NCBI GenBank assembly: GCA_026388115.1
Contig: JAPLKK010000017.1
Span: 15,667 to 79,666 of the forward strand
DNA length: 64,000 nt
Direction of reading: 5' to 3'
From: Elusimicrobiota bacterium
Lineage (GTDB): Bacteria; Elusimicrobiota; Elusimicrobia; UBA1565; JACRDR01
The first letter of the stretch is position 1. Every line of letters begins with the position of its first letter. Below, piece by piece: positions 1 through 55,739 of this stretch. A program made the position numbers and the translations under genes. The notes under the pieces were generated by a model that saw only the letters and a list, made by a program, of their open reading frames with translations, was not told the origin of the DNA and did no database searches.

Positions 1-1
1 C

Positions 2-14900: not shown

Positions 14901-16480
14901 GAGCGCCGGCGGCTTCGGCGTCATGGTCTCGACCAACGCCGGCGCCACGTGGACGGACTGGACGGTCCCGGCTTCCTCGGTCGCCGTCGCCGCGCCGGTC
15001 CAGGCTTTCGCCGTCTTCGGCGGCAAGCTGTACGCCGGGGGCGCCGGCTCTAACTTGTACGCGACCGCCGACGGTCTCGGGTGGACTACGAAGACGGTCG
15101 CCACCTGCGGCGGCGGAGGCACGATCAACGCTCTCGCCGCCTTCCGAGGGAAGCTCTTCGCGGGCTGCGGCGGCACGCACGGCATTTCGAGCGATGGGAC
15201 CAGCTTCTCCGCCTTCCTCGCGCCCGGCAAGATCCTGTCGTTCGCTTCCTTCAACGGGAGGCTGTACGCCGGCGCCGACAGCCAGCAGGTCTCGATGAGC
15301 ACCGACGGGGCCGCTTGGTGGCAGTTCAGCCTGCCCTTGGGGCAGACGCAGAACTCGAGCCTGGCCGTTTTCCGCGGCCGCCTCTACGCCGGCACCGACT
15401 CCGCCGCGACGCGCGTCTGGCACTCGGTCGACGGCTCGACCTGGTCCAAGACCGCCGGCGGCAGCGCCGGCGGCGCGCCGCCGGCGATGGCGGTCTTCAA
15501 CGGCAGGCTGTACGTCGGCGGCAGCGCCGATACGACCATCCGCGCGAGCGTCGATGGCGTCAACTTCGTCCCGGTCTTCACCGCGCCGTTCGCGGCGGGA
15601 TCGAGCAACATGGCGGCGATGACGGTCTTCAACGGCAAGCTGTACGTCCTCGATGGCGCGAACAAGGCCCTCTTGTGGACGGCCGACGGCTACCGTTGGT
15701 TCACGTCCGCGCTCGCCGTCACCGACGCCGCCTTGAACGCCCTCGCCTCCTTCAACGGCAGCCTGTACATCGGCGGCTCGAGCAACCTGTATCGCCTGCA
15801 GGCGCTGCCCGCGGTCCTGGCGGGGCCGGACGGCACCACCTCCCCGCAGACGCTCTCGGCCAGCTCGCTGAGCCTCGCGCAGTCCTCGGTGACCACGGTC
15901 TGCAACGGCGTCTATCCGTGCGCGGCGACCGACCAACTCGTGTTCACCGCCTCCGACCTGGCGGGCAACACGGCGCTGTTCGGCCCCTTCGCCGTCCTCG
16001 TCGACAGCACCAGCCCGGTCGCGATCTCGACGCCGGCCTTCCCGCTCAACGGCATGCACGTCTCGGGCCAGCCGCGCCTCTACTGGCTGGGGCCGAGCAC
16101 CTCCGTGGCCGCGGGCCTGCAGCCGCCCGCCGCCTATTACCTGCAGGTGGCCAAGAACGACCCGGCCTTCGCGGCCGGCAACCTCGTGGTCAACATCGCC
16201 ACGCCCGTCGTGACGAGCCCCGGCGATCTGACGGCGAACTCGCACTACGTCTCGACCTATACCCTGCTCGACAACACCACCTATTACTGGCGCGTGCGCG
16301 CGCAGAGCGGCCTGGGCACGGCGAGCCCGTGGTCGAAGGCCTTCGTCTTCGCGACCCAATTCACCACGCCGACCTTGAGCGGCCCGTTCGTGAGCAACTC
16401 GACGGGGGCGCTGATCCCGGAGACCCAATTCCACGTCCTGGCCGCGGGGGTCACCGCGCAGCTGACCGTCCAGGATCCCG
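355..16480 (+). repeat. Ten tandem in-frame coding supermodules of about 1.66-1.75 kb. Each is a Cys-pair linker (TLTG.DGT..QTL.A..L.L..S.N..C.G..PCGATNQV.FTA.D.AGN), an FN3-like domain, a GVTAQ..VQD..SGLAVS..FAGDGH module and a roughly 7-blade Asp-box propeller. They are divergent protein-level repeats, not identical DNA.
   Basis: Linker starts fall near 355, 2083, 3790, 5540, 7250, 8940, 10670, 12420, 14130 and 15790, spaced 1660-1750 nt. I read these directly from the translated frames; coordinates are approximate. Confidence 0.8.
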
Positions 16481-34400: not shown

Positions 34401-37400
34401 TGCGGACGCCAACGGCAACGGACAGCTCGACGTGGGCACCGATACGCTGGTCACCAGCGGCAACGACCGGTTCACCAGCGGGTTGGTCACCGTGGGCTTC
34501 ACGCAGTCCCAGGTCATCGCCGCGAGCACGCAGACGTTCTTCGTCTCTGTGGACATTCCGGCCACAGCCATCCCCGGCGATACCTTCGGCGTGGTCGCGC
34601 TCTCGAGCGGCAGCCTCATCGTCGTCGCGCCGAACACGGTCTCGACGACGAGCGTCTCCTTCCCGCTCAAGACGACGCCCGTGCCGATCCAGCAGTATCC
34701 CAACATCATCACCGCTTCGACGGCCTCTTTGGCCCCGGCCGCGATCGACCCGTCGCAGACCAACGTGGGGATGCTGGCCCTCACGCTCAAGACCAACGTT
34801 TCGAACGCGCGCTGGTCGAAGCTGCTCCTCGATCGCGTCGGCGGCCTCGACGCCGACGTCAAGGAGGTCCGCGTCTATTACGACGCCAACAACGTGGGCT
34901 CATGGGACTCGAGGAACGCGAACGCGTATCTTCTCGTCACCTCGACGGGCCAGAGCTTCGGGCTCAAGGGCATCCAGGGTCAGGTGAGCTTGAGCATCGC
35001 CCTGCCGCCGTCGCAGCCGGTGAACTCGACGCCGAAGACGTTCTATATCGTCATCGACATAGCGAACGGGGCCTTGCCGTCGGACTCGATCGCGGTGCGC
35101 ATCCTCAACGCGAACTACCTCACGGTCGACGCCCCCAACACCGTCGCCGCCTTCTCGGCGCAGTCCGGCGCGTCCGTCGTGAACCAGCAGGCCGCGATGA
35201 TGACGGTCGTCGCCTCCACCGGCGTCCTGCCCGCCGTCGTGCGACAGGGCGACTTCAGCGTGCCGTTCGCGCGCTTCGATCTGCAGATGGACCGCTACAC
35301 CGCGCTGTGGACGAAGCTGACGGTCACCGAGGGAGGCACGGCGGCGGACGCCGACGTCAGCAAGGTCAGGCTGTATCTGGCCGCCAGCTCCAGCGAAACG
35401 ACGGTCCAGCCGTTCAGCGACCAGCAGGTGGCCGCGGGCACCTTCGTCTCGGGCCAGGTCATCCTGACCTTCCAGCTCCCGCAGGTCATCTTGTCGACGA
35501 GGACGTTGACGTACTTCCTGACGTACGACATCTCGCCGGTCGCGCAGGCCGGGGTGCTGGCCGGCGCCACGATGAGCGGCCCGGGCTCGTTCGTGCTGGC
35601 CGCGCCCAACGGCGTCAATCCCACCGGCTTCCCGATCCACTCGGGCCTGGCGCTGATCCAGCCGACGGTGACGGGCGTGCTGGCCAGCTTCCAGGACAAG
35701 GCTCCGGCGGGCCTGAAGCAGGGGGCCACCGCCCAGGTGATGATGAGCCTGACCCTTCAGACGACCTCCAACGAGGCCCTGTGGTCCTCGCTCGTCGTGC
35801 AAAAGACGGGCACCGCGCCGGACGCCGACATCCACGCGGTGCGCCTCTTCGTGGACGCCGACGGCAGCGGCGTCCTCAAGCCCGGAGACGCGGAGCTGAC
35901 CTCCGGCGCCGACCGCTTCATCAACGGCTCGGTGACGCTGGCGTTCAACACGCCGCAGGAGATCAGCCCGACGCCGAAGCGGTACCTGCTCGGTCTCGAC
36001 GTGGACCTCCACGCCTCGCCGACGGACACCGTGGGCCTGGCGATCCCGTCGCCCTCCTACTTCGGTCTCGTCGCGCCGAACTACGTCATCAACAGCGGAT
36101 TCCCGCTGCAGTCGTCGAGGATACCGGTCGCCAAGCTCCCGGATATCCTCGACGTGACCTTCACGGACCTGGCGCCGACGGGGGCCAACGAGGGCTCCGA
36201 AACGCTGATGGCGCGGTTGCGGCTGCGCGCCGAGCGCGACAACGCCGTCTTCACGAGCTTGCGCCTGCTCAAGATGGGCTCGTTGCCCGACGTGAATGTG
36301 ACGCAGGTGCGCCTGTATCTCGATGCGAACAACAACGGCGCGGTGGACCCGCAGGACGTGCTCGTGGCGACGGCCGCCTTCTCCAACGGCATGGTCGCGT
36401 TGAGCACGTCGAACGCGATCCTCACCTCGACGCAGACGTACCTGCTGACCTGCGTCCTCGACCCCGGCGCCGCGGTCGGCGCGACGCTGGGCTTGCGCGT
36501 GCCGGACAGCACCTACGTGGGCGCGGCCTTCCCGGACACCCTGTCGGCGCCGGCCTTGCCCTTCTCGACCATCCTCGTCAACGTGCTCGACGCCCGCACG
36601 CCGTCGAAGCCCGTGGTCACGGTGCCCGGCGGGTACTGGGCCGCCTTCGACAACCTGCCGTTCAGCTGGACCTCCCAGGTGGCGCTGGGCTCGATCATGG
36701 ACGTGCAGTACGCCGTCGGCACGGCTTCGACGATGACCGATGTCCTGGCTTGGCAGGACCTGCCGCCGTCGCAGGCGGACGTGACCATCGCCGGGCTCAA
36801 CCTGCAGAGCGGGATCACGTACTTCGTGCTCGTCCGGGCGATCAACGTCATCGGAGGCGTGACGTTCGTCAGCCCCATCGGCGTGTCGCAGGGAGTGCTC
36901 ATCGACTATCAGATCCCGCGGCCGCCCGTGCCCTTGGTCAGCGTGAGCGAAAACGCGGTGCGCATCGCCTGGCCGGCCGTGACGACGGCGGTCGACAGCT
37001 CGACGCTCCCGTCGGGGATCATGGGGTACCTGGTCCAATACCGCACGGGAGCGAGCCCCGTCTGGATCAACGCCAAGACCCAGCTGGCGGTCCCGTCGTC
37101 CATGGCCTTCGGCCCGGCGGCCGCGTGGGCCGCGCGCAAGGCGGCCCAGAACGGCGTCGCGCCGGCGGCGGTCGCGCTCTCGTCGGCGGATCTCATCACC
37201 AACACCAGCTACAATTTCGCTCCGCCGGCCGGCACGGTCTACCTTAAGGCGAGCGCGGTCAGCAACTCCGGACAGATCAGCGCGGACTCGCCGGTGCAGA
37301 AGGTCCAGGTCGGCGCCCTGCCGAAGGGCGGCATCACCAACGTCAGAAACTACCCGAACCCGTTCGACTCGCGCACCGGGGTGACGACGATCAACTTCAC

Positions 37401-37614: not shown

Positions 37615-37644
37615 CGTCCGAACCGGCCGCGCGCCTCGAGGCTC

Positions 37645-37727
37645 TTGACAGCGCAAGCAAGATCGAGCCCCAGTCAAGGCCGCAATCGATTTAAGCTGCA
37701 ACAACAACACCTTTTTTATTAAAAAAT
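37645..37727 (+). promoter_or_regulatory. Intergenic candidate promoter region for the downstream PorV-like operon. It has a TTGACA hexamer at 37645-37650 and an AT-rich tract ttttttattaaaaaat at 37712-37727.
   Basis: This is the only AT-rich stretch in about 38 kb. I do not see a convincing -10 at 17 bp from the TTGACA, so the exact promoter is uncertain. Confidence 0.3.
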
Positions 37728-37775
37728 CTCAGAATGTCTTCGTGATTAGGGGGGCTATCCCGTTAAACTTGTGGT

Positions 37776-39410
37776 GTGCCGCGCTCCCTCCTCCTCGCGA
37801 GCCTCACCTTCCTCGGCGGTTTGATCGCCGCCCCCGCTTTTGCGCAGGTTTCCGCGATCAATCCCGGCCAACTTTACTCCGCCGGCGGCGGCGCCCGCGG
37901 CCTCGCTATGGGAAGCGCGCTCACCAGCGTCGCGGGCGACATCTCCTCGCTGTACTACAATCCCTCCGGCCTCGCGACCCTGAGCGGCCGCCAGATCACC
38001 GCGATGCAGGCGTCCCTCTACGACGGCGCGGCCTACCAGTACCTCGGCTACGGTCAGGGACTGCGCCGCAGCCTCGGCGGCTTCGGCCTCGAGGTCATGC
38101 GGCTCGGCATCTCGGGCGCCGACGGCCGCGACGCCAGCAACCTCGGAACCGGGTCTTTCGGCTACAGCGAGCAGAGCATCGGCGCGGGCTTCGGCATGCG
38201 CGGCGTGCTCCACCCCGACCTGTCGGTGGGCATGAAGGTGCATCGGCTCACCCGCAGCCTCGGCGGCTCCTCCGACAACCTGACCGGCGTCGACTTCGGC
38301 GGGATGTACGGCCCGATCTTCGGCGAGCGGCTGACCCTCGGCTTCATCGTCCAGAACGCGCTGCAGAAGAGCCAGGGCGACACCTCCGACAAGCTCGCCG
38401 CGCTGACCCGCGTGGGCGCGGCCTATAATCTCGCCGAGGGCTTCCTGCTCGCCGCCGACGTCTCGAGCGACAAGGACTTCCGCATCGGCACCGAGTACAA
38501 CTGGGGCATCGCCACCTTCCGCGCCGGCTATACCGGCGCCGGCGTGAGCTTCGGCACGGGCCTGCTGTTCCGCCAGGCGCTCGTCCTCGACCTCGCCATG
38601 GTGAACAGCTCGGTGCTCGGCAACTCCACCCGCGTGTCGCTGGGCTATAAGTTCCGCGAGGCCGCGGCGAAGCGCAACGTGCAGGCGATCGCCGAGGAGT
38701 ACCTGGCGAACGCGCTGCTCGAGCTGAAGGCCCGCGACTACGTGCGGGCGTCGAAGGGGCTCGACGCCGCGCTGGGCATCAGCCCGCGCCTGGGCGAGCT
38801 GGGCTGGAAGGTGCGGGCCCAGCGGCTGCGCAGCCTGGTCATCGAGCTCGACCTCGCCAACCTCCCCGAGTTCCAGGAGATCTACAAGGCGCAGACCGCC
38901 CCGGCCCTGCTGGCGCACGAGGGCGTGATGGCGCTGCTGGACGAGGACAACGGGCGCGCCATGCTCTTCGTCCACGCGGCCCTCGGCCAGAACTCGCGCG
39001 AGAGCGCCTACCGCAAGCTCCTCGAGGCGATGTCGCGCCTGACCAAGGGCGAGATCCACCGCGAGGACATCCTCCCGCCGTCGGCGCTGGTCGAGCGCCG
39101 CCTGCAGCGCGCCGTGGACCAGATCTACGGCGGCCACTACGACACGGCCATCGTGGACTGCAAGGACGCGCTGGCCCTGGACCCGAACAACGCCACGGCC
39201 TGGATGAGGCTGGGCTCGGCGTACTTCGCCGCCGGCGACAAGTCCGACGCCGCCACGGCGTACCGCAACTCGCTGAGCCTCGACCCGACCAACGAGAGGC
39301 TCCGCCAGTTCATGCAGCAGCAAAGGATGCCGCTCTACACCCCGCGCGTGGCACCGCTTCCAAGCGGTGCCATGCTCGGGCTCATGGTGAGCCGCTTGGA
39401 GGTTCGATAA
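37776..39410 (+). CDS. Outer-membrane PorV/PorQ-family-like beta-barrel (T9SS-associated shuttle-like) with a C-terminal TPR-repeat region. GTG start; cleavable signal peptide ...APAFA/QV.
   Basis: Signal peptide MPRSLLLASLTFLGGLIAAPAFA. The N-terminal motif SAGGGARGLAMGSALTSVAGDISSLYYNPSGLA resembles the PorV N-terminal signature (GMG....A...DA....YNPA.LA). Gly/Tyr-rich alternating strands end ...SLGYKF. The C-terminal roughly 240 aa is helical, with a TPR-like stretch NATAWMRLGSAYFAAGDKSDAATAYRNSLSLDPTN. Family assignment is by motif only. Confidence 0.55.
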   Translation: MPRSLLLASLTFLGGLIAAPAFAQVSAINPGQLYSAGGGARGLAMGSALTSVAGDISSLYYNPSGLATLSGRQITAMQASLYDGAAYQYLGYGQGLRRSLGGFGLEVMRLGISGADGRDASNLGTGSFGYSEQSIGAGFGMRGVLHPDLSVGMKVHRLTRSLGGSSDNLTGVDFGGMYGPIFGERLTLGFIVQNALQKSQGDTSDKLAALTRVGAAYNLAEGFLLAADVSSDKDFRIGTEYNWGIATFRAGYTGAGVSFGTGLLFRQALVLDLAMVNSSVLGNSTRVSLGYKFREAAAKRNVQAIAEEYLANALLELKARDYVRASKGLDAALGISPRLGELGWKVRAQRLRSLVIELDLANLPEFQEIYKAQTAPALLAHEGVMALLDEDNGRAMLFVHAALGQNSRESAYRKLLEAMSRLTKGEIHREDILPPSALVERRLQRAVDQIYGGHYDTAIVDCKDALALDPNNATAWMRLGSAYFAAGDKSDAATAYRNSLSLDPTNERLRQFMQQQRMPLYTPRVAPLPSGAMLGLMVSRLEVR

Positions 39411-41884
39411 TGGAGTTCCTGCTCATCGCCGCGATGCCGCTGATGTTCCTGCTCCTGGCGACCGTGATGATGGTCGTGAGCGAGACGTCCGGCTTCTTCA
39501 CCTTCACGCGCATGTCGGCCCGCCAGCGGGCGACCAACCGGGTGCTGCTGGGCTACGTCCAGCGCCAGCGCATGGCGCGCCGCCAGCTCTCCTTGCGCAG
39601 CCGCCAGCTCGCGGGCCTTTCGGCGAGCCTGGCGGGCTCCAACCGCGAGCTCGAGCAGCTCAACAGCCTCAAGTCGCGCTTCTTGTCGGTGGCCGCGCAC
39701 GACATGCGCACGCCGCTGGCCTCCATCCGCGGCTTCGCCGAGAGCCTCTCGGGGCAGAAGATGCTGACGCCCAAGGACCGCCGCTACGTCGGCAACATCA
39801 TGACGGCCGCGGACCAGATGGGGCGGCTGACGGCGGACCTGACGGACCTGTCGATCATCGAGGCCGGCAAGCTCAAGATGGAGCCGGCGCCCTTCGACTA
39901 CGCCGCGCTCATCGAGGAGCTGTGGGGACAGCTGAGCCTGGTGGCCGAGCGCAAGGGGGTGCGCCTCATCGCCTCGGAGCTTCCGCGCGGCCTCGTCCTC
40001 GCCGGCGACCGCTTCCGCATCGGTCAGGTCGTCAGCAACCTCGTCGGCAACGCGATCAAGTTCACCCCGGCCGGAGGCGTGGTGGACCTGCGGGTGCGCG
40101 AGGCGGCGTCGGGCGTGATGACCGTCGTCGCCGACACCGGCCCTGGCATCCATCCCTCCGAGCAGAAGCGCATCTTCGAGAAGTTCTATCAGGCGCGCTA
40201 CGGGGCGAGCGCCGCCGCCGCCAAGCAGGGCTGGGGCCTCGGCCTCTCCATCGCCTTCGAGATCGTGCATGCCCATCACGGCGAGATCGGCGTCGAGTCG
40301 CCGGGCCTGGGCCGCGGATCGAAGTTCTGGTTCTTCATCCCGCGCGAGCCGGCGGCGCGCAGGCCCGGGGCGGGGCTGTTGCGCGCCCTGGCGGCGGCGG
40401 CGCTCCTGCTCGCGTTCGTCTTGAGGACGGGAGCGCAGGCGCAGACCCTCCCCTTGGAGGACAAATCGCGCTACGACAAGTACCTCGAGCAGAAGGTCGA
40501 GTCGGTGCTGACCGACATGCTCGGCCCCGGCCGCGCCAAGGTGGTCGTGGACGCCACGGTGGACTTCACGCGCATCGAGAAGTTCACGGTCGCCGGGGGC
40601 GAGGGCAAGGGCAAGGATAAGGCCGGCCAGGAAGCCCTGTACGCCTGGCAGAACATCGTCGCCCAGACCAGCGGCCCCAACGAGTTCCTGCCGGGCGTGC
40701 CGGTCCATGAGGGCGGCCCCGGCGGGGCGCCGACCTCCTATGAGCGTCAGTCGGGATTCACCCCCGAATTCCTTAAGAAGCTCTCGGTGACGCTCATCGT
40801 GGACCAGAGCGTCCCGGAAAGGCAGGTGGGCGACATCCAGGACATCGTCACCAACCTCCTGCAGGTGGACGAGGCCCGCGGCGACGCGTTGACGGTCGTG
40901 CGCACGACCTTCCCGCCTCCCTGGAAGACGATGTGGTATTCGCAGGACTCGGTGAGCATGGTCTTCCGCTACTCGATCCTGGGCCTGTTGTGCCTGGCGA
41001 CGCTCACCGTGGTGGCCTTTTGCTTCTACCGCCTCGCGGGGGCCATGGACGCCATGGCGCGCAGCCAGGCGAACTACGGCTTCGACCTGGGCCAGGAGGC
41101 CGCGGGATTGGGCGAGCCGGCGGCCGAGCCGCCCGCCATCGAGGCCGAGCAGAAAGAGGAGCCGCAGGCCCTTGCGGGCCCCGAGGGAGAGCAGATCGTC
41201 ATCGCGGTGCGCGAGGACCAGATGCCCGTGCTGGTGACCATGATGCTGGGAGAGGAGCCGGAGAACATCGCGCTGGTCATGGCCCACCTGGACCCCGAGC
41301 GCCGGCGCGACTTCATGCGCCAGATGCCGCGCGAGCTGGAGGCGAAGGTGCTGGGCAGCCTCGCGCAGGTGCGCTTCGTGGAGGAGAGCCTGGTCCAGTC
41401 TATAAAGGAAGAGATCGAGCGCCGGCTGGCGGGGGCGGTGGGGGGCCTGCACAGCGTCTATCAGATCGTCGACCAGGCGGACCCATCGGCCAAGCGGGAG
41501 CTGTTGGAGATCCTGCGGCGCACCGACCCCGACCTGGCGAAGGCCGTCCGCTCGCGCATCCTGCTCATGGAGGACCTGCTGCGGCTCAGCGCCGACGGCT
41601 GGAGCCTCCTCACCGGGCGGGTGCGCCTGGAGGACTGGGCCTCGGCGCTCAAGGACGCCTCGTCCGAGCTCAAGGACGCCTTGCGGTCCCAGATGCTGCC
41701 GAGGACGTGGGCGATCCTGGAGCAGGTGGCCGAATCGGGCGAGGCCACCCCCGAGAAGCTCGCCGCCGCCCAATCGGCCATCCTCGACGAGGTCTCGCGG
41801 ATGATCTCGGCGAACCTCATCGAGGACCCGCGGCCGACCGAGGAAGCGCCGCAGCGTTTGGAAGCGCCGGCGGTAGGAGCATAA
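39410..41884 (+). CDS. Chimeric membrane protein. An N-terminal TM is followed by a histidine kinase (HisKA plus HATPase_c), then a TM and a FliF/YscJ-type ring-building (RBM3-like) periplasmic domain, then a TM and a FliG-like domain (N domain plus C-terminal torque helix). The start overlaps the upstream stop (ATAATG).
   Basis: Kinase part: His[15 protein letters not shown]; HATPase N-box [24 protein letters not shown]. FliF-like part: [29 protein letters not shown] (compare Salmonella FliF IEAILSPIVGNGNVHAQVTAQLDF), LSVTLIVDQ, and [13 protein letters not shown] preceding the [26 protein letters not shown]. FliG N-like: [25 protein letters not shown]. FliG C-like: [27 protein letters not shown] (compare FliG ALKGASEELREKIFKNMSKRAAEMLREDLE). 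There is no in-frame stop between the parts. Confidence 0.7.
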
Positions 41885-41887
41885 GCC

Positions 41888-42844
41888 ATGGCGAACGAGC
41901 CCACCAAGAAAGCGGCGTCGTTTCTGGCCTCCTTGCGCGGCGGCGCGCGGGGAGCGGCGGGGGGGGCGGCGGCCGCGGGCGGCGCCCCGCCCGAAGAGCT
42001 GGTCCGTCCGCTGCAGCGGCGCGTCGACGAGCTCGAGAAGCGCGTGCAGGACGTCTTGAAGGCGGCCGCGGGACCCGAGGAGGGCGAGCCTCCGCGCGCG
42101 CCGACGGAGCTGATGATGTACATCCACGCTCGCACCGAGCTCCTCGAGCGCAAGCTGCAGGAAGCGCAGGCCGAGGCCCTGCGCGCGAACCTCCTGCTGC
42201 ACGAGCGCGAGACGGCCCAGCGGCAGGCGCAGAAGGAGGTGGAGGAGCTGTTCCGCACCATCAAGGAGCACGAGCGCGCCGCGCGCTACGACGGCGCGCT
42301 TCGCGAGCAGCTATCGTCGGCCCAAAGGAAGATCGCGGAGCTGGAACGGAAGGTCGGGGGAGGGGAGCCGCCGTCGTCGGCGCCTCCCGCGCCGCCTGCT
42401 GAGGCCCAATTGGCCACAACCGTCCGCGACGTCGACTCTATGGCGCTGCTCGTGCTGACGGCGAAGCTCGCCGATCTGGAGCGGGAACTCGAGGCGGCGC
42501 GGCGGGAGAGGGATGAGGAGCGCGCGCGCAGGACCCGGTGGGAGCGCGAGACGGCCGCGACGCTGGCCCAAGCCCATTGGAAGAAGCCCACCAACATCGA
42601 GCTCACGGTCGAGGCCGCGCTCGAGACGATGGCGCTGGCCTTGCGCGAGCGCGAAGACACCGAGCGGGAGCTGAAGGAGGCTATGGCTCAGGCGGAGAGT
42701 CAACCGCCGGACGCCGGTCCCGATCCCGTGCTGCGCGCCCGCATCACGGGCGCGCAGGAGCGTCTTGACCGGCTGTCGCGGACGCTGGACGAGCAGATGC
42801 ATCTGGTCCAGGCGTGGATCGCGGGGAATAAACAGGCAGGGTGA
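41888..42844 (+). CDS. Charged coiled-coil protein with an Ala/Gly-rich N-terminus. A FliH/FliJ-like role is speculative.
   Basis: ATG at 41888, 4 nt after the upstream stop. Heptad-rich E/R/A/L sequence (LQRRVDELEKRVQDVLKAAAG..., RELEAARRERDEERARRTRWERE). No globular domain recognised. Confidence 0.5.
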   Translation: MANEPTKKAASFLASLRGGARGAAGGAAAAGGAPPEELVRPLQRRVDELEKRVQDVLKAAAGPEEGEPPRAPTELMMYIHARTELLERKLQEAQAEALRANLLLHERETAQRQAQKEVEELFRTIKEHERAARYDGALREQLSSAQRKIAELERKVGGGEPPSSAPPAPPAEAQLATTVRDVDSMALLVLTAKLADLERELEAARRERDEERARRTRWERETAATLAQAHWKKPTNIELTVEAALETMALALREREDTERELKEAMAQAESQPPDAGPDPVLRARITGAQERLDRLSRTLDEQMHLVQAWIAGNKQAG

Positions 42845-44408
42845 AATAGAATACGCTGCCTTTTTCGGGCTCCGATTCCGCCCAGATCCTGCCGCCGTGC
42901 CCCTCGACGATCGTCTTGCAGATCGAAAGCCCCAGGCCCGTGCCCTCCACCGGCGTCGCCCGGTGATGGTCGTCCACGATCCTTTCGAACTTGACGAACA
43001 GCCGTCCCATATCCTCGGGCCGTATCCCGAGGCCGGTGTCCTTGACCGCGCAGCGGATGAAGTCCCCGTCGCGTCCGGCCTCGATGCGGACCGAGCCGCC
43101 GCGCGGGGTGAACTTGAGGGCGTTGCCGATCAGGTTGTTGAAGACCTGGTCGAGCTTCTCGGGATCCGCCCAGACGGCGGGCAGGTCCTCTGGAACGTCG
43201 TGGCTGAAGGCGACGCCGCGCGAGGCCGCGCTCGCGGCTAACAGAGCCAGGCGCGGCACGAGCTCCTGGAGGCGCGCCTCCTTCATCATGAATTTGAACC
43301 GCCCCGAGCGGATCCTCGCCGCGTCCAGGATGTTGGCCACGAAAGCCGACAGCTTCCGCGTCGAGTTCTTGATGAGGTTCACCAGCCGCGTCTGCTCCTC
43401 GCCGAGCGAGCCGTAGTCGCCGGTCGTGAGCGCGTCGGTGATCATCGTGACGGCGTTGAGGGGCCCGCGCAGGTCGTGCGAGACCATCGAGATGAACTCG
43501 TCTTTGAGCTGGTCGAGGGTGCGCAGCCGGTCGTACAGCTTGGCGTTGTGGATCGCCTGGGCGATCATCGAGCAGAAGATGGCGGCGTGCCGCAGGTCCT
43601 GGGCCACGAACGGCTGCTGGCCCGGCTTGCGGTTGACGCTCAGCACGCCCAAAAGGTCCTCGTTGAGCATGATCGGGTACACCAGCGACACGCCGACGTC
43701 CTTGCGCCCCGGCAGGTCGGCGAAGCGCGGGTCGGTCTGCAGGGGGCCGTTGATGTTGACGCCGGTCCGCCATTGGGCGACGCGGTCGGCCACGGCGGGG
43801 GCCGGGGCCACGGAGGGCATGCGCCCCCACTCCTCGCGGGGGAGGGCGGTCGAGGCGGTCAGCGTGAACTGCTTCTGGTCGTTGAGGAGCATCACGCTCA
43901 CGTCATCGGCGCTCAGGACCTTGGCGGCCAGCGAGATGAGATCGGGCAGCAGCTCCTCGAGCTCCGTGTCGGCGAAGACGCTGCGCGTCGCCTCATAGAG
44001 CGCGACCAGCGCCTTGAGGCCGATCTTCTCGCCGAGGGCGGGCAGGAGCGCCTCGAGCTCGACCTGGGCGAACGGCTTGATAAGGAAGGCGTAGGCCCCG
44101 AGGCGGATGGCCTGCCGCGCGACGCGCTCGGCGAGGGCGTCGCCGGTGGCCAGGATCACCTCGATGTCGGGGTCCACCCGGCGCAGGGCCTCGAGGGTCT
44201 GCAGGCCGTCTTTGCCCGGGAGCTGGTAGTCCACCACGGCGACCTGGAACTTGCGCCGGCGGGCCTCGGCCACCGCCTTTTCAGCGGTGTCAACGCCGAC
44301 CACCTCGTAGCCCTTGGCCTTCAGGCTCGCGGAGACAAGCTCCCGCCACTCGTCGTCATCTTCGACGACAAGGATGCGGTGAGCGTCAGAAGCCTCAGAC
44401 GCTCCCAT
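42744..44408 (-). CDS. Hybrid signalling protein: receiver (REC) domain, GAF-like domain and histidine kinase.
   Basis: REC: ILVVEDDDEW...VAVVDYQLPGKDGL...LIKPF. HisKA: FISMVSHDLRGPLNAV. HATPase: FNNLIGNALKFTP, DTGLGI, GTGLGLSICK. Its 3' end overlaps the convergent coiled-coil ORF by about 100 nt. Confidence 0.8.
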   Translation of the reverse strand: MGASEASDAHRILVVEDDDEWRELVSASLKAKGYEVVGVDTAEKAVAEARRRKFQVAVVDYQLPGKDGLQTLEALRRVDPDIEVILATGDALAERVARQAIRLGAYAFLIKPFAQVELEALLPALGEKIGLKALVALYEATRSVFADTELEELLPDLISLAAKVLSADDVSVMLLNDQKQFTLTASTALPREEWGRMPSVAPAPAVADRVAQWRTGVNINGPLQTDPRFADLPGRKDVGVSLVYPIMLNEDLLGVLSVNRKPGQQPFVAQDLRHAAIFCSMIAQAIHNAKLYDRLRTLDQLKDEFISMVSHDLRGPLNAVTMITDALTTGDYGSLGEEQTRLVNLIKNSTRKLSAFVANILDAARIRSGRFKFMMKEARLQELVPRLALLAASAASRGVAFSHDVPEDLPAVWADPEKLDQVFNNLIGNALKFTPRGGSVRIEAGRDGDFIRCAVKDTGLGIRPEDMGRLFVKFERIVDDHHRATPVEGTGLGLSICKTIVEGHGGRIWAESEPEKGSVFYFTLPVYSPRSTPGPDASARPASATAGQDAPARP

Positions 44409-44545
44409 TCAGTTAATTTTTCGCTTATGAGGAAGCTCTGTCAAGTGGGGAATTGTCAGCGCTAGTCAGCGGCGCTGCAATCGCCGAGGCCCCTTCCTCG
44501 ACCCGGGGTGAAGGAAGTTGTAGTATTGTCGAGAGCGGAAATGAC

Positions 44546-45406
44546 ATGGCCTCGCTGACGGCCCTAAAAAACATCGCGGATAGCTATAGATTTCAGCTTC
44601 GGCTTCGCGGCCAACTGGGGCCGCGTCTGGCCTACACCACGCTGTACTGGGGGCGGTACCTCGCCGCCCGCTACGGCCCGCGGCGTCTGGACAGCAGCGG
44701 CGCCCACTGCGCCGCCTTCGCTTATCTCGGCCGCAGCGGCCGCAGCGCTCGGACCGTCACCGTCGCCACGCCGCAGGGCCTGCGCCTCCGGGTCTATCTC
44801 ATGACCGCTTTCATGGTGCTCAAGGAGCTCTACGGCGAGCGCATCTATGAGGACTGCGACCTCGATGACTTCCGGGTCGGTGAGGGCCAGGTGGTCTTCG
44901 ACATCGGCAGCCAGCAGGGCGTCTTCGCGCTGGCCGCCGCCCGGCGGGCCGGCGCGGGCGGGCGCGTCGTCGCCGTCGAGCCGGAGCCGCGCAACCGCGA
45001 GCTGCTGCTCGCGAACATCGCCTTGAACGGCCTCTCGAACGTCCGCGTCTTCGATTGCGCGATCTCGGACCAGGAGGGCTCCGCGCGGCTGTTCATCAAT
45101 GCCGAGAACACCGGCGCCCATTCGCTGGTGGGGGCCGGCTCCGGCCGCCACGTCGTCGTGCGGACGATCACGCTCGACCAGCTGGCGCGCGAGGCCGGCT
45201 GCGCGCCGCAGCTGGTCAAGATCGACGTGGAGGGCAGCACCCTGGCGGTGCTGCGCGGGGGCCTCGAGACCATCGGCGCTTCCAGGCCCCGCATCGTCCT
45301 GGAGCTGGACGCTCCGGAGGACGAGGCGACGATCCGGGCGCTGCTCGAGCCTTTGGGCTACCGCCTGCGCCGGAAAGGCAACAATCTCTTTGCCAGCGCG
45401 GCGTAA
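44546..45406 (+). CDS. FkbM-family SAM-dependent methyltransferase. Likely start is the internal ATG (MASLTALKN...); the track ORF begins at 44453.
   Basis: VVFDIGSQQGVFALAAARRAG..GRVVAVEPEPRNRELLLANIALNGLSNVRVFDCAISDQEGSARLFIN...SLVG...ITLDQLAREAGCAPQLVKIDVEGSTLAVLRGG matches the Methyltransf_21 (FkbM) pattern. Confidence 0.75.
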   Translation: MASLTALKNIADSYRFQLRLRGQLGPRLAYTTLYWGRYLAARYGPRRLDSSGAHCAAFAYLGRSGRSARTVTVATPQGLRLRVYLMTAFMVLKELYGERIYEDCDLDDFRVGEGQVVFDIGSQQGVFALAAARRAGAGGRVVAVEPEPRNRELLLANIALNGLSNVRVFDCAISDQEGSARLFINAENTGAHSLVGAGSGRHVVVRTITLDQLAREAGCAPQLVKIDVEGSTLAVLRGGLETIGASRPRIVLELDAPEDEATIRALLEPLGYRLRRKGNNLFASAA

Positions 45407-45417
45407 TATCGCCGACC

Positions 45418-45446
45418 TTGACAGCCCCGACGGCGGCTGGTATTCT
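45418..45446 (+). promoter_or_regulatory. Sigma70-like promoter upstream of motA: TTGACA at 45418-45423, a 17-nt spacer, and TATTCT at 45441-45446. A GAGGGA Shine-Dalgarno sits about 10 nt before the ATG at 45479.
   Basis: Read directly from the sequence: cgaccTTGACAgccccgacggcggctggTATTCTtttgtcgcccacgccGAGGGAacttcaccgctATG. Confidence 0.5.
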
Positions 45447-45478
45447 TTTGTCGCCCACGCCGAGGGAACTTCACCGCT

Positions 45479-46222
45479 ATGGACCTCACCACAATCCTTG
45501 GCATCTTCGGTATCTTCGGCTTAGGCGCCGTCGTCTGGGTCACCGGCCAGGTCTCCTCCGCCTTCCTGAACGCGCACGGTCTGACCATGGTGATCGGCGG
45601 CGCCCTGGTCGCCATCCTCGTGAACACTCCCCTGCCGCTGTTCCTCGAGGCGCTGCGGGCTCTCTTCGTGCTGTTTCGGCGCGAGTCGGCGGGCGATCCG
45701 CGCGAGATCGTCCCCGTCCTGGTGACGGCGTCGCAGAACGTCCACGCGCGCGGCATCAACGCCCTGGCGGGCATGGACCCCGCGGTGGCCGGGGGGTTTT
45801 TGGCCCGCGCCGCGCAGATCGCGATGGAATTCAAGGACCCCGTCTACGTGAACGAGGTCCTCGGCGCGGAGTTGGCGCGCGAGAATGAGCATCACAACGA
45901 GATCGTGAACGTGTACCGGACGCTCAGCGTCCTCTTTCCGATGTTCGGCCTCATCGGCACTCTGTTCGGCATCGTGCACGTGCTGAAGAACCTCGGGACC
46001 GACCCCGGCGCCATCGGCCCGGCCATGGCCGTCGCCATCACCTCCGCCTTCTACGGCATCTCGTTCGCGAACCTCTTCGCCGTGCCGGTGGCGGGAAAGC
46101 TCCGCATCAAGTTCCGCCAGGAGCTGTTCGTCAAATCCGTGATCGCGGAGGCGGTGGTCGAGATGCTCAAGGGGACCGCACCGGTCCTCGTCGAGCGCCG
46201 CCTGGAGTCGGCCCTCTTGTAG
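45479..46222 (+). CDS. motA: MotA/PomA-family proton-channel stator subunit (4 TM).
   Basis: About 247 aa with TM1/TM2, a cytoplasmic loop, and TM3/TM4. The TM4 signature AMAVAITSAFYGISFANLFAVPVAGKLR is typical of MotA. The size matches PomA/MotA. Confidence 0.8.
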   Translation: MDLTTILGIFGIFGLGAVVWVTGQVSSAFLNAHGLTMVIGGALVAILVNTPLPLFLEALRALFVLFRRESAGDPREIVPVLVTASQNVHARGINALAGMDPAVAGGFLARAAQIAMEFKDPVYVNEVLGAELARENEHHNEIVNVYRTLSVLFPMFGLIGTLFGIVHVLKNLGTDPGAIGPAMAVAITSAFYGISFANLFAVPVAGKLRIKFRQELFVKSVIAEAVVEMLKGTAPVLVERRLESALL

Positions 46223-46237
46223 GGCGGGGCCGCGCCG

Positions 46238-46936
46238 ATGCCGATCCTGCACCTGCCGGAAGACGACCTCGAAAGCAAGCTCAACTCCAGCGCGCTGTGG
46301 GCCGTGACCTACGGCGACATGATGAGCTATCTGATGATCTTCTTCCTGGTCCTGTTCGCCTTCAACGTCACGAAGAAGGTGGACCAGAAGGAGGTGCAGC
46401 CCGATAAGAAGACCGACGATACGGTCATCAGCATCGTGAACGTGTTCGGCGGTAAGATCGACCTCGAGCGGCAGAAGCGCTTGAAGCAGCGTCAGGCGGA
46501 GCAGGAGATGGCGCAGAAGGCCGAGGCGGAGGCGAAGGCGGGGCCCGCGGGCATGGAGGTCAAGAATCTGGCCGACCGGGTCCAGTTCGTGCTCGACAGC
46601 GCCGTGCTCTTCGACTCGGGCCACGCCGAGCTCAGGAAGGAGGCGGTCCCGACGCTCGAGAAGATCGCCGAGAACCTCAAGGAATCGCCCAACGAGATCG
46701 TGGTGGAGGGGCACACCGACAACGTGCCCATCCACCACGGCAAGTACAGCTCCAACTACGAGCTGTCCATGGCCCGCGCCTACAGCGTCGTAACCTTCTT
46801 GATCAATCACGGCATCGCGCCTCAGCGCCTGTCGGGGGCGGGCTACGGCGAGTACAAACCCGTGGCCGACAATCAGACGGCCGAAGGCAAGGCCAAGAAC
46901 CGCCGCATCGAGATCGCGCTTTTCCGCACCAAGTGA
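46238..46936 (+). CDS. motB: MotB-family stator subunit with an OmpA-like peptidoglycan-binding C-terminal domain.
   Basis: N-terminal LWAVTYGDMMSYLMIFFLVLFAF (compare MotB W.VTYADLMTLLMAFF, with the conserved protonatable Asp). The OmpA-like C-terminus reads VVEGHTDNVPI...YSSNYELSMARAYSVVTFL...NRRIEI. Confidence 0.85.
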   Translation: MPILHLPEDDLESKLNSSALWAVTYGDMMSYLMIFFLVLFAFNVTKKVDQKEVQPDKKTDDTVISIVNVFGGKIDLERQKRLKQRQAEQEMAQKAEAEAKAGPAGMEVKNLADRVQFVLDSAVLFDSGHAELRKEAVPTLEKIAENLKESPNEIVVEGHTDNVPIHHGKYSSNYELSMARAYSVVTFLINHGIAPQRLSGAGYGEYKPVADNQTAEGKAKNRRIEIALFRTK

Positions 46937-48324
46937 AGCCTCTCCGGGTCGCTCGCCGAGTCCGCTTATCACTGCGGGCATTCGAAGCCGCCGCCGCATT
47001 CCAGGCGCTGGCGGGCGGCGCGCGCCAGGCCTTCCTCATCGAGCGCGGCGGCTGGGGCGGCGAGCCGGAGACCGCCTGCCTCGGCTGGGGTCCCGCGGCC
47101 GTCTTCCGCCTCTCGCGCGGCCGCTTGGCGGCTCTCGGCGCGCGGGCGCTCTCCGGACCTCACCCTCTCGCGGCCCTGGGCCGCTCGCTCCAAGCGGTCC
47201 TGGCCGCTCGCGCGGGCCCGGCCTGGGCCGGCGGCGCGGTCGGCTACCTGGCCTACGAGGTCGTCCGCCACGTCGAGCCGGTCCCCGCGCGGCCGCATCT
47301 GGCGGAGGAAGGCCTGCTGATGGTCTTCGACCGCGCGCTGATGCATGACTACCGCACCGGCGTGACGGAGCTGGTCCTGTGGGACCGGGGCGCCGCTGCC
47401 GCGCGGGAGGAAGCCGCCGTCGTCGAGAAGGCGCTTCTTGCCGTTGTTCCCTCTCCCCGCGTTCGGGGAGAGGGTAGGGTGAGGGTGAATTCCGTTAAAC
47501 TCACCAGTAGTCTCGGCCGCTCCGGCTACATGGCCGGGGTGCGGCGGCTCAAAGAGCACATCCGCGCCGGGGATATCTTCCAGGCCGTCCTGTCCGACCA
47601 GTTCCGCGCGAGCGTCCGCCCCGGCGACCTCGCGCTCTATCGCGCGCTGCGGGCCTCCAATCCCTCCCCCTACCATTTCCTCCTGCGCGACGGCGACGAA
47701 AGCTTCGTCGGCGCCTCGCCGGAACGCCTCATCAAGGTGGAGGGGAGGCGCGCGCTCTACAGCCCGATCGCCGGCACGCGCCCGCGCTCGCCGTCGGCGT
47801 CCCGGGACCGGCGGCTCGAGGCCGCGCTCAAGCGCAGCCCCAAGGAGCGCGCCGAGCATCTGATGCTCGTCGATCTCGGCCGCAACGACCTCGGCCGCGT
47901 CTGCCGGCCCGGCACCATCCGCGTGTCCCGCTTCATGGACGTGCGGCGCTTCTCGCGCGTCATGCATCTGGTCAGCGAGCTCGAGGGGCGGCTGGAGCGA
48001 GGAAAGTCCGCTTGGGACGCGCTCGAGGCGGCCTTCCCCGCGGGAACCGTGACGGGCGCTCCGAAGGTGCGCGCCATGCAGCTGCTGCATGAGCTGGAGC
48101 CGGCCGCCCGCGGCTTCTACGCGGGCGCCGTCGTTCAGCTGGATCCTCTCGGCAACCTCGACTCGTGCATCAGCCTGCGCAGCATCCGGCTGACGCCTTC
48201 GGGGGCGGTCCTGCAGGCGGGCGCCGGCATCGTCGCCGATTCGAACCCCGCGCGCGAGTACCGGGAGGTCCTGGACAAGCTCGAGGCCGGCCGCCGCGCG
48301 CTCGCGGCCGCCGCGCTCCTGTGA
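46933..48324 (+). CDS. trpE: Anthranilate synthase component I. Carries an in-frame palindromic-repeat insertion at about 47445-47490.
   Basis: Chorismate-binding core: GDIFQAVLSDQF, SPYHFLL, SPERL, LVDLGRNDLGRV, GTVTGAPKVRAMQLL, GFYAGAV. The ATGA overlap with the motB stop is read directly. Confidence 0.85.
   Translation: MKPLRVARRVRLSLRAFEAAAAFQALAGGARQAFLIERGGWGGEPETACLGWGPAAVFRLSRGRLAALGARALSGPHPLAALGRSLQAVLAARAGPAWAGGAVGYLAYEVVRHVEPVPARPHLAEEGLLMVFDRALMHDYRTGVTELVLWDRGAAAAREEAAVVEKALLAVVPSPRVRGEGRVRVNSVKLTSSLGRSGYMAGVRRLKEHIRAGDIFQAVLSDQFRASVRPGDLALYRALRASNPSPYHFLLRDGDESFVGASPERLIKVEGRRALYSPIAGTRPRSPSASRDRRLEAALKRSPKERAEHLMLVDLGRNDLGRVCRPGTIRVSRFMDVRRFSRVMHLVSELEGRLERGKSAWDALEAAFPAGTVTGAPKVRAMQLLHELEPAARGFYAGAVVQLDPLGNLDSCISLRSIRLTPSGAVLQAGAGIVADSNPAREYREVLDKLEAGRRALAAAALL
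47449..47488 (+). repeat. GC-rich palindromic REP-like element, copy 1: an 11-bp stem ccctctccccg / cggggagaggg with a cgtt loop, followed by tagggtgagggtga. It lies in-frame inside trpE and encodes ...PSPRVRGEGRVRVN...
   Basis: Perfect inverted repeat at 47449-47459 and 47464-47474. It is near-identical to copy 2 at 54270-54310. Confidence 0.7.

Positions 48325-51330: not shown

Positions 51331-51334
<4 letters not shown>
50696..51334 (+). CDS. trpF: Phosphoribosylanthranilate isomerase.
   Basis: [38 protein letters not shown]...QLHGSE. Overlaps trpC by 4 nt. Confidence 0.8.
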
Positions 51335-52392
<1,058 letters not shown>

Positions 52393-52396
<4 letters not shown>

Positions 52397-54632: not shown

Positions 54633-55739
54633 ATGACACAATACATCCACGAACTGAGCGATTGGCCCAATTTCCAATGGAGACAGGAGGTCCTGACCGA
54701 GATCCTAGCGAACGTCCGCCTCAAGCAAGGCCAGCTCATCGGTTCGATGGAAAGCCTAGGCTTCTCCCAGCAGAACGAGGCCGTGCTTAAGGCCTTGACG
54801 CAAGATGTCCTCAAGTCGAGCGAGATCGAGGGGGAGATCCTCAACCCGGATCAGGTGAGGTCGTCCATCGCTCGCCGGTTGGGCATAGACATTGCGGGTC
54901 TCACGCCCGCCGATCGTCAGGTTGAAGGCGTGGTGGAGATGACCCTTGAGGCCACGCAAAATTACTCCGAACCGCTGACGAAGGAGCGACTGTTCGGCTG
55001 GCATAAGGCATTGTTTCCCAGCGCGTCGCCGAGTGTGCAAGTGGGCCGGTGGCGCGACGACGCGAAGGGGCCGATGCAGGTGGTCTCGGGAGCCCTTGGT
55101 CGGGAGCGTGTCCATTACGAAGCGCCCGCAGCCGAGCGCTTGGATCGGGAGATGGAAGCCTTCTTCGAATGGGCGAATCGGTCCGGCGACATCGACCCGC
55201 TTCTTCGGGCGGCTAAGGCGCATCTTTGGTTCGTGAACATCCATCCATTCGACGACGGCAACGGCCGCATCGCGCGCGCCATCGCGGATTGGGCATTAGC
55301 GCGATCCGAGAACAGATTGCGCCGCGCCTACAGCATGTCGGCGCAAATCCAACTCGAACGCAAGGCCTACTATCAGATCCTTGAAAGCACCGGAAAGGGA
55401 GACCTCGACATCACGGACTGGATGTTATGGTTTCTCGGCTGCCTTGATCGGGCCATCGCCGGAGCGCAGGCTTCTCTAGGGTCCGTCTTGGAAAGAGACA
55501 AGTTCTGGAAGACGTACGCTCCGCTCCCGTTGAACGAGAGGCAAAAGCAGATGCTGAACAGGCTGCTCGACGGCAGTTTCAAGGGGAAACTGACCACGAC
55601 CAAATGGGCGAAGCTGACGAAATGCTCTCATGACACGGCGCAGCGCGACATCGTCAATCTCATCGAGCACGGAATCATGGTGAAGGACGCCGGCGGAGGC
55701 CGAAGTACGAGCTATTCCCTGAAGCAGGCGCGGATCTGA
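54633..55739 (+). CDS. fic: Fic-family (Fido) protein with an N-terminal DUF4172-like region. It has the HPFDDGNGRIAR active-site motif and an upstream SSEIEG inhibitory-helix-like motif. GC is lower than its surroundings.
   Basis: HPFDDGNGRIARAIADW matches HPFx[DE]GNGRxxR. SSEIEG matches [ST]xxxE[GN], N-terminal to the core. GC is about 57% against about 70% locally. Confidence 0.8.
   Translation: MTQYIHELSDWPNFQWRQEVLTEILANVRLKQGQLIGSMESLGFSQQNEAVLKALTQDVLKSSEIEGEILNPDQVRSSIARRLGIDIAGLTPADRQVEGVVEMTLEATQNYSEPLTKERLFGWHKALFPSASPSVQVGRWRDDAKGPMQVVSGALGRERVHYEAPAAERLDREMEAFFEWANRSGDIDPLLRAAKAHLWFVNIHPFDDGNGRIARAIADWALARSENRLRRAYSMSAQIQLERKAYYQILESTGKGDLDITDWMLWFLGCLDRAIAGAQASLGSVLERDKFWKTYAPLPLNERQKQMLNRLLDGSFKGKLTTTKWAKLTKCSHDTAQRDIVNLIEHGIMVKDAGGGRSTSYSLKQARI

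Follow-up and report, generated by a model that had tools for sequence, protein, structure and literature searches.

To our knowledge, torque generation by FliG and the MotAB stator is known only from flagella. Most free-living Elusimicrobiota have no flagellar structural genes, yet they carry numerous homologues of motAB and fliG, the role of which has been called 'unclear' (bioRxiv 10.1101/2022.07.08.499144). A recent stator survey, which defines flagellar and generic classes, does not mention Elusimicrobiota (Puente-Lelievre et al., mBio 2025, PMC12505986). Here we analyse a motAB pair in a 64-kb stretch of DNA from an Elusimicrobiota bacterium (contig JAPLKK010000017.1 of assembly GCA_026388115.1; the whole stretch is referred to as the window). 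We consider it likely that this pair drives a non-flagellar rotor, a ring built from a protein encoded upstream in which a histidine kinase, an RBM3-like domain of FliF, FliG_M and FliG_C follow each other in one chain. Apart from the preprint on unexplained motAB and fliG genes cited above, we found no published description of this cluster, of the fusion protein or of a link to PorV-like proteins and sorting domains.

By ORF (open reading frame) reading, both stator genes are intact and co-oriented. The A subunit, MotA (45479-46222, forward strand, 247 residues), contains AITSAFYGISFANLFAVPVAGKLR and is predicted to have four transmembrane (TM) segments, with which a TM scan agrees, and a cytoplasmic torque-interface domain. 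The B subunit, MotB (46238-46936, forward strand, 232 residues), contains LWAVTYGDMMSYLMIFF and combines a TM helix carrying the channel Asp with a plug and an OmpA-like peptidoglycan-binding domain. The translations and the Pfam matches, MotA_ExbB for MotA (5.8e-19), MotB_plug (1.2e-10, 41.3 bits at a cutoff of 24) and OmpA (6e-21, 75.1 bits at a cutoff of 27.2) for MotB, bear out the peptide motifs and the OmpA-like C-terminus that an earlier note had pointed out from the letters alone. That note had also proposed to classify the pair against MotAB, PomAB, TolQR and ExbBD, and both profile scores and PDB matches place it on the flagellar-type side. The best NCBIfam model for MotA was PomA (2e-38, residues 1-244 of 247), followed by MotP and MotA, while TolQ matched only a partial stretch (5e-4); for MotB it was MotD (2.6e-45, full length), followed by MotB and MotS. 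Among the PDB matches listed, those covering the full length of MotA were flagellar stators only; they include Aquifex 8GQY (4.7e-30), Vibrio PomA 8BRI (4.5e-27), 9LUC, 6YSF, 6YSL and 6YKM, and stators of Paenibacillus, Clostridium, Bacillus and Campylobacter were matched as well. MotB matched 6YSL and 6YSF. No ExbB or TolQ chain was found for MotA, and no ExbD or TolR chain for MotB, at E <= 1e-3 among the 60 matches listed. With a profile built from the MotA proteins of Elusimicrobiota, scores were 59 bits for E. coli MotA, 17 for TolQ and 13 for ExbB, and a comparison made besides this profile gave 26.4, 15.6 and 9.1 bits, respectively. Residues of functional importance are retained: Pro173 and Pro222 (E. 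coli numbering) are Pro in the window protein and invariant in 118 of 118 members of the MotA family, and the equivalent of the ion-binding Asp32 of MotB is Asp in all 59 cluster-linked MotB proteins, that of the window species included. Together, the flagellar-type matches and these invariant residues indicate, at the level of sequence, that motAB is of the flagellar type (PomA/MotA/MotD-like), not TolQR, ExbBD or Zorya, and that it encodes a divergent but presumably functional ion-driven stator.

The same comparisons bear on the idea that the pair is a Tol/Ton-like or Zorya-like energiser, driving a periplasmic force transducer or an anti-phage effector and not a FliG ring. The 5:2 motor family, after all, serves many envelope tasks (PMC12204202), and MotB matches the ZorB models of PADLOC. 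However, these matches arise only through generic MotB similarity, PADLOC returned no match at all for MotA, ZorA included, and TolQ and ExbB lie far below MotA and PomA. Besides the lack of Tol and Exb chains among the PDB matches listed, the plug and the OmpA domain distinguish MotB from TolR and ExbD, and no TolA/TonB-like or ZorC/D-like gene is found among the neighbours of motAB. We regard an energiser of this kind as scarcely credible.

The predicted rotor protein (39410-41884, forward strand, 824 residues) is encoded 3.6 kb upstream of motA. HisKA, HATPase_c, YscJ_FliF_C (34.1 bits, cutoff 23.8), FliG_M and FliG_C all match it above the Pfam cutoffs. Hydrophobicity and two mutually consistent AlphaFold (AF2) models suggest a first TM segment at residues 5-23, a cytoplasmic kinase, a second TM segment at 320-338, a periplasmic domain, a third TM segment at 521-539, a low-complexity linker and finally FliG_M and FliG_C. 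In the models, the periplasmic domain has the order alpha-beta-beta-alpha-beta, with a 65-residue insertion between the first two strands. Foldseek matched the full-length fusion model to histidine kinases only, and the C-terminal 495 residues were modelled separately for the fold search. This C-terminal model matched FliG_MC (1LKV, 8.5e-12) and the RBM3/collar region of Salmonella FliF (8FTF, 1.6e-4; 6SD1, 2.8e-4; also 7CG7; E-values from 1.6e-4 to 6e-4, TMt 0.50-0.56), and its FliG_C domain matched stator-bound FliG (8UCS_H) with a TMt of 0.80. By sequence, the FliG part matches FliG_MC of T. maritima (7.6e-21), and the Gly-Gly linker is invariant. Pfam detects no FliG_N in the protein, and RBM1 and RBM2 of FliF are absent from the AF2 models; the lack of FliG_N would make sense for a FliG that is covalently joined to the membrane ring. 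The EHPQR motif, with which FliG binds FliM, is degenerate in the family (EEPE), and R160 is not conserved. At the other end of the chain, the H-box and the N, G1 and G2 boxes are nearly invariant, as expected for a catalytically intact kinase, while neither the TM scan nor the AF2 models show a periplasmic sensor domain for it. Taken together, sequence and models suggest a natural mini FliF-FliG fusion with an N-terminal kinase.

To see how far this arrangement is shared, 185,579 species genomes were scanned with the FliF/FliG part, which gave 72 loci, most of them in records titled Elusimicrobia or Elusimicrobiota and a few titled only 'bacterium'. ORFs were called in all loci and searched with the window proteins; counts refer to the 42 loci (species representatives) in which the sequence extends at least 2.5 kb upstream of the FliF/FliG gene and 5 kb downstream. 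Homologues of MotA and of the fusion came almost only from Elusimicrobiota metagenome-assembled genomes, and the neighbourhoods of five MotA homologues revealed a common cluster. Near the FliF/FliG gene, motA is present in 41/42 loci and motB in 40/42, and in 41/42 a gene for a PorV-like protein with tetratricopeptide repeats (TPR) lies just upstream. In the window, this gene (37776-39410, forward strand) encodes a predicted outer-membrane protein of 544 residues with a signal peptide, a PorV/PorQ-like barrel and a C-terminal TPR region, and its stop codon overlaps the start of the rotor gene (TAATG). Downstream of the rotor gene follows a conserved coiled-coil protein of 318 residues without TM segment (41888-42844, forward strand), for which Pfam, NCBIfam and PDB gave no match; a weak PADLOC match to LmuB (E-value 3.8e-4, no significant stretch) was disregarded. 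Homologues of the coiled-coil protein occur in most loci.

Two main gene orders can be distinguished. In type I, to which the window belongs (18 loci), a cargo gene with a sorting domain is followed by the PorV-like gene, the fusion of histidine kinase, FliF and FliG, the coiled-coil gene, motA and motB. A gene ending in a homologous sorting domain lies upstream of the PorV-like gene in 16/18 of these loci, and in 7/18 an OmpR-type regulator (Trans_reg_C) follows motB; type II loci and the window do not have the regulator. In type II (23 loci), the order is PorV-like gene, separate histidine kinase, motA, FliF/FliG, coiled coil and, where the contig reaches it, motB, with the coiled-coil gene placed between FliF/FliG and motB and not between FliF/FliG and motA as in type I. 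Since the kinase is a separate neighbouring gene in type II, the fusion in type I joins neighbouring partners. That motA and motB flank the rotor gene would be difficult to account for if their products did not act together with it. A third architecture, which is more distant, was found in two metagenome loci with a G+C content of 45% and a MotA about 31% identical to the family (L087, positions 8447-17648, and L088, positions 1-17540; JGI metagenomes 3300033143 and 3300033144). It has no kinase and keeps a UPF0164/PorV-like protein with TPR, a FliG_M-FliG_C-TPR fusion of 684-687 residues, MotA (265 residues) and MotB (340 residues), besides a Wzy_C-TPR protein. The position of the coiled coil is taken by a 1007-residue coiled-coil protein in L088 and by a 1234-residue protein without Pfam match in L087. 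Both, as well as locus L007, have a PorV-like homologue with a Pfam match to UPF0164 or PorV. In L088, a PorP/SprF-like gene was also observed, located after an ORF of more than 1800 residues.

One genome (GCA_028688015.1) carries, in addition to a type II cluster, a paralogous motAB pair (locus L006, positions 10001-20771), behind which lie genes for a dCache kinase, two receivers and an OmpR-type regulator; the opposite strand encodes a 478-residue FliG_M/C protein, a HATPase_c protein and a HAMP kinase, and no flagellar genes lie beside the pair. Hence, a genome can apparently hold several FliG-MotAB modules. The earlier note had suggested that the stator serves the upstream FliG-like protein and not a flagellum, and classification, synteny, this FliG-linked paralogue and the restriction of the trp linkage to one clade support it. 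Its description of the pair as stand-alone was misleading, as motAB is the tail of a conserved cluster that is split in the window by two inserted genes.

Several observations weigh against a flagellar-type stator acting on a FliF-FliG ring. Both subunits miss the NCBIfam equivalog cutoffs (132 bits for PomA at a cutoff of 341, 155 bits for MotD at 283). In MotA, R90 is replaced by His in the window (Gln, Arg or His in the family) and E98 by Ala (Arg, Lys, Ser, Thr or Gly in the family), while in FliG D288 is replaced by Gln in 24 of 25 members of the rotor family and D289 by a hydrophobic residue. For the 65-residue insertion in the RBM3-like domain, model confidence is low. The PorV-like protein spans positions 10-326 of the 326 positions of the NCBIfam PorV_fam profile (1e-17), but with 64.8 bits it remains below the cutoff of 90, and with the query used a sorting-domain gene was detected in only 1/23 type II loci. 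Furthermore, homology, domain architecture, residue conservation and synteny are what is observed here; from them we infer the contact between rotor and stator, the ring, its rotation and the link to the giant protein upstream. Since the canonical MotA-FliG contact charges are not kept, the interface, if it exists, is rewired. In the FliG family, a conserved Glu is found one position before, and 16/25 members have Lys or Arg at R281, which together with D288 and D289 faces R90 and E98 in the canonical pair. A simple compensating swap of charges between MotA and FliG was looked for; the charges seem to be shifted by one or two positions in both proteins, and no co-variation could be demonstrated.

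A further point on this side is that complete sets of flagellar genes do occur in a few Elusimicrobiota (bioRxiv 10.1101/2022.07.08.499144). The motAB pair could then be a normal flagellar stator that has become separated from the flagellar genes and drives a flagellum for which the genes lie at another place in the genome. Subunits of the flagellar type with all channel residues, as seen in MotA and MotB, would be expected of such a stator. In flagellated bacteria, motAB pairs unlinked to flagellar genes are common. However, a drifted stator would leave the near-universal linkage to a FliF/FliG gene in 42 species unexplained, with motA and motB flanking it in many of them, and the canonical charges of R90 and E98 are lost. 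Pfam and other profile scans of the window proteins found no flagellar structural genes within the 64 kb, in accordance with the earlier note, and none were seen among the called genes of eight related loci. Most free-living members of the phylum are without flagellar structural genes (bioRxiv 10.1101/2022.07.08.499144). We consider a drifted flagellar stator very unlikely.

A stator working on the fusion protein could operate as follows. The motAB product would be an ion-driven stator of the 5:2 type, anchored to peptidoglycan by the OmpA-like domain of MotB, with ions passing the invariant MotB Asp. The cytoplasmic domain of MotA would push on the FliG_C domains of the ring; candidate contacts are the region of MotA around HARGINALAGMD and the FliG helix 'RTWAILEQ'. 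FliG_N would be dispensable, with FliG being covalently part of the membrane ring, and FliM/FliN, the export apparatus, rod, hook and filament do not belong to the cluster. The output would most likely be in the envelope, passing from the FliF-like periplasmic ring to the PorV-like barrel with its TPR region and on to the giant protein with its sorting domain of the T9SS (type IX secretion system) type, which may be exported, anchored or moved. The kinase and, in relatives, the OmpR-type regulator may provide control or feedback.

The presumed cargo, a giant surface protein of 9553 residues (8953-37614, forward strand), contains Laminin_G_3, DUF6242 and Ig-like repeats according to Pfam. Its C-terminus, encoded at about 37351-37611, is a T9SS type A sorting domain with an NYPNPFD motif (TIGR04183 Por_Secre_tail, 28.3 bits, cutoff 23). 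GldLM/PorLM, PorK/N, PorU and SprA did not turn up among the window proteins scanned. The system around the stator may be a new kind of machine. More specifically, the Elusimicrobiota may possess a novel rotary secretion or gliding apparatus, in which MotAB turns a minimal, free-standing FliF(RBM3)-FliG ring, devoid of type III export gate, rod, hook and filament, that is coupled through the PorV-like/TPR protein to giant proteins; we put this forward as a tentative proposal, less likely to be right than wrong.

The chief rival to a mechanical output is that the module is mainly a sensor of proton motive force, load or surface contact: engagement of the stator or ion flux would alter the conformation of the FliG/FliF ring, modulate the kinase and control expression of the giant protein. 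In both main architectures, an intact kinase is indeed fused to the rotor or encoded beside it; this kinase lacks a periplasmic sensor domain, and the Trans_reg_C regulator after motB in 7/18 type I loci would offer a route to gene expression. Yet the third architecture dispenses with the kinase and keeps FliG, the coiled coil, MotA, MotB and the PorV-like protein, no regulator is present in type II loci or in the window, and the stator retains all elements needed for torque generation. A predominantly sensory role hence seems rather improbable, although signalling and mechanical work are compatible and do not exclude each other.

Expression of motAB in the window appears to start from a promoter of its own. 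The gap between the preceding gene and motA comprises 72 nt and holds a promoter-like element (45418-45446, forward strand), with the -35 hexamer TTGACA at 45418-45423, a 17-nt spacer and a TG-n-TATTCT -10 element, the hexamer of which lies at 45441-45446. It agrees with the consensus at 10/12 positions, plus the TG. A Shine-Dalgarno-like GAGGGA is read at 45462-45467 (forward strand), 11 nt 5' of the motA ATG. Both elements are thus present as described in the earlier note. A consensus scan found two promoter-like sites in 7 kb, both intergenic, compared to 0.2 expected in shuffled sequences, and the 64-kb window has a single copy of the extended motif TTGACAG-N10-GGCTGNTANNCT, where 0.00 were expected; the site is more than chance. 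The extended motif is also found upstream of motA in L001 (the motA sequence of the window itself, 100% identical, on another contig), in L002/L003 (one further species, two contigs, both carrying P0011), in L009 and in L071, and nowhere else in 80 loci. L002 has TTGACA-17-TATTCT with the TG likewise 5' of motA, where no genes are inserted, and shares the GAGGG Shine-Dalgarno stretch. In L071 the scan gave no promoter site under its thresholds; the alignment shows a conserved -35 element and a TAACCT -10 element. The presence of the element in relatives, among them the insert-free L002, indicates that, in this clade, the motA-proximal promoter is older than the inserted genes.

Within the motif, CAGCC and GGCTG form an inverted repeat. 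The leader RNA (intergenic region) does not fold better than shuffled sequences (z 0.48), for which reason the repeat was rejected as a terminator and a promoter, possibly with an operator, is preferred; the repeat itself is a possible operator. Rfam gave no match to an RNA family in the window. A different gap, AT-rich and 161 nt long, separates the giant gene from the PorV-like gene (37615-37775), with a TTGACA at about 37644 and a T/A-rich tract, and may contain the promoter of an operon of the PorV-like, rotor and coiled-coil genes.

At its downstream end, motB runs into trpE (46933-48324, forward strand; Chorismate_bind, 1e-87, and Anth_synt_I_N in Pfam), the first gene of a trpEGDCFBA-aro supraoperon. 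The overlap of the motB stop and the trpE start reported in the earlier note exists and is 4 nt long, but it reads GTGA instead of ATGA (46933-46936, forward strand): the GTG of trpE at 46933-46935 overlaps the TGA of motB at 46934-46936. By reading, this GTG is the first ATG, GTG or TTG of its frame, and there is no other 5' of residue 20, where the Anth_synt_I_N match starts. With such an overlap, there is no intergenic space between motB and trpE that could hold a trp promoter, and trp genes are found behind the cluster in L002 and L071 as well. This might suggest that the coupling is functional, with a physiological reason for controlling the stator together with tryptophan synthesis. Loci L002 and L071, the window and its duplicate contig L001 are, however, the only places where trp genes were seen; none of the 42 loci with enough flank has them beside the cluster. 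In L002, which belongs to another species and has a MotA 68% identical to that of the window, motA directly follows the coiled coil, and motB is followed by the regulator, trpG and trpD. In L071, the genes between the coiled coil and motA are one for a receiver-GAF-kinase, located on the opposite strand, one for a receiver and one for a large membrane protein, and motB is followed by the regulator, with an identical GTGA overlap, and then by trpE. The N-terminus of the window TrpE, MKPLRVARRVRLSLRAFEAAAAF, aligns with MSRPSPRRVPLSVRHFDAAAAY of L071 right after the start.

With motB, regulator and trpE in this order and the same GTGA in L071, the regulator gene was evidently lost in the window, and the simplest reading of the aligned sequences is that a near-precise deletion left trpE on the old overlapping start. 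A regulator gene separating motB from trp in both relatives, a junction that looks like a deletion scar and a trpB that is itself disrupted in the window make a functional coupling highly improbable. The motB-trpE coupling is real in the sequence, clade-specific and most likely a recent accident, and trpE is a neighbour, not a part of the machine. The ancestral order would have been PorV-like gene, rotor, coiled coil, motA, motB and regulator, interrupted here by the two inserted genes, with the motA-proximal promoter driving motAB. With the regulator lost, trpE came to lie immediately after motB, and transcription of motAB probably continues into the trp operon.

The first of the inserted genes encodes a receiver-GAF-histidine kinase (42744-44408, reverse strand), identified by Pfam and synteny; it is also found in L009 and L071 and is absent in L002. 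Its low-complexity tail past HATPase_c makes up a convergent overlap of 101 nt with the coiled-coil gene (42744-42844). The second strong promoter-like site of the scan, TTGACA-17-AAAAAT (44416-44444, reverse strand), lies just 5' of this kinase gene, in the gap shared with the divergent second insert. The latter encodes an FkbM-family methyltransferase (44546-45406, forward strand; Methyltransf_21 in Pfam, 1e-20). Its ORF is open from 44453, and the start at 44546 corresponds, in converted coordinates, to the start of the gene call in L001. Relatives carry other genes at this position, in L071 the receiver gene and the gene for the large multi-pass membrane protein, which by reading is transporter-like.

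A second giant ORF (104-8968, forward strand, 2954 residues) with DUF6242 and beta-propeller repeats overlaps the 9553-residue ORF by 16 nt. At the listed starts neither has a signal peptide, and only the 9553-residue ORF ends in the sorting domain. The two may represent one frameshifted gene of more than 12,000 codons, or the first ORF may extend 5' of the window. After trpE follow trpG, D, C, F, B and A, aroF, a Fic gene, and aroA, E, K and B. The Fic/DOC gene (54633-55739; DUF4172 and a helix-turn-helix domain) lies between aroF and aroA inside the supraoperon. The trpB gene (51331-52396) is split over two reading frames and misses about 30 codons of the conserved core, and is either a pseudogene or the result of an assembly error.

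If a rotor-stator pair is conserved throughout the phylum and has neither flagellar export genes nor axial genes next to it, the engine must be usable for another job, and the long-standing question of what a bare module of MS-ring, FliG and stator does without a flagellum would become directly testable. If true, it would be a living example of such a module working without a flagellum, either ancestral to the flagellar motor or derived from it. The rewired charges at the presumed interface would offer a natural experiment on stator-rotor recognition. The association with a PorV-like protein and a giant T9SS-type cargo suggests a second, independent coupling of an inner-membrane ion motor to surface adhesins, with a bearing on attachment or movement of the mostly uncultured and reportedly non-motile Elusimicrobiota.

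Among known systems, the T9SS and gliding machinery of Bacteroidota (GldLM/PorLM, PorV, SprB-like proteins) shares with the cluster the neighbourhood of 5:2-family motor genes and a PorV/PorQ-like barrel, encoded alongside a surface protein that is giant and repetitive and carries a C-terminal sorting domain of type A. In contrast, MotAB and a FliG ring take the place of GldLM here, the PorV match is below its cutoff, SprA, PorK/N and PorU were not seen among the scanned window proteins, and the phylum is a different one. In Salmonella, SPI-4 encodes SiiAB, a MotAB-like proton channel pair, together with the giant non-fimbrial adhesin SiiE, for which it is needed. SiiAB operates together with a type I secretion system and lacks a FliG partner, and it is likened to motAB by description only. 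It has been counted among the 5:2 motors (PMC12204202).

Also similar is the MS-ring/C-ring core of FliF and FliG, including fusions engineered for structural studies (e.g. PDB 8Z4D). The cluster differs from it by a natural fusion, an N-terminal histidine kinase and the lack of RBM1, RBM2 and FliG_N, with no genes for FliM/FliN, export gate or rod nearby; common to both are the RBM3/collar-like domain, a TM segment, FliG_M and FliG_C in one chain, the Gly-Gly linker and a FliG_C fold as in stator-bound FliG. From the MotAB/PomAB stators ('FIT', the TGI4/PomA-like group, PMC12505986), the pair is set apart by the missing flagellar linkage, the replacement of R90 and E98, scores below the NCBIfam equivalog cutoffs and a partner FliG without FliG_N, an intact EHPQR motif and D288/D289. 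With them it shares full-length homology of both subunits, a MotA of four TM segments with Pro173 and Pro222, a MotB with channel Asp, plug and OmpA-like domain, and an encoded FliG_C as the likely target.

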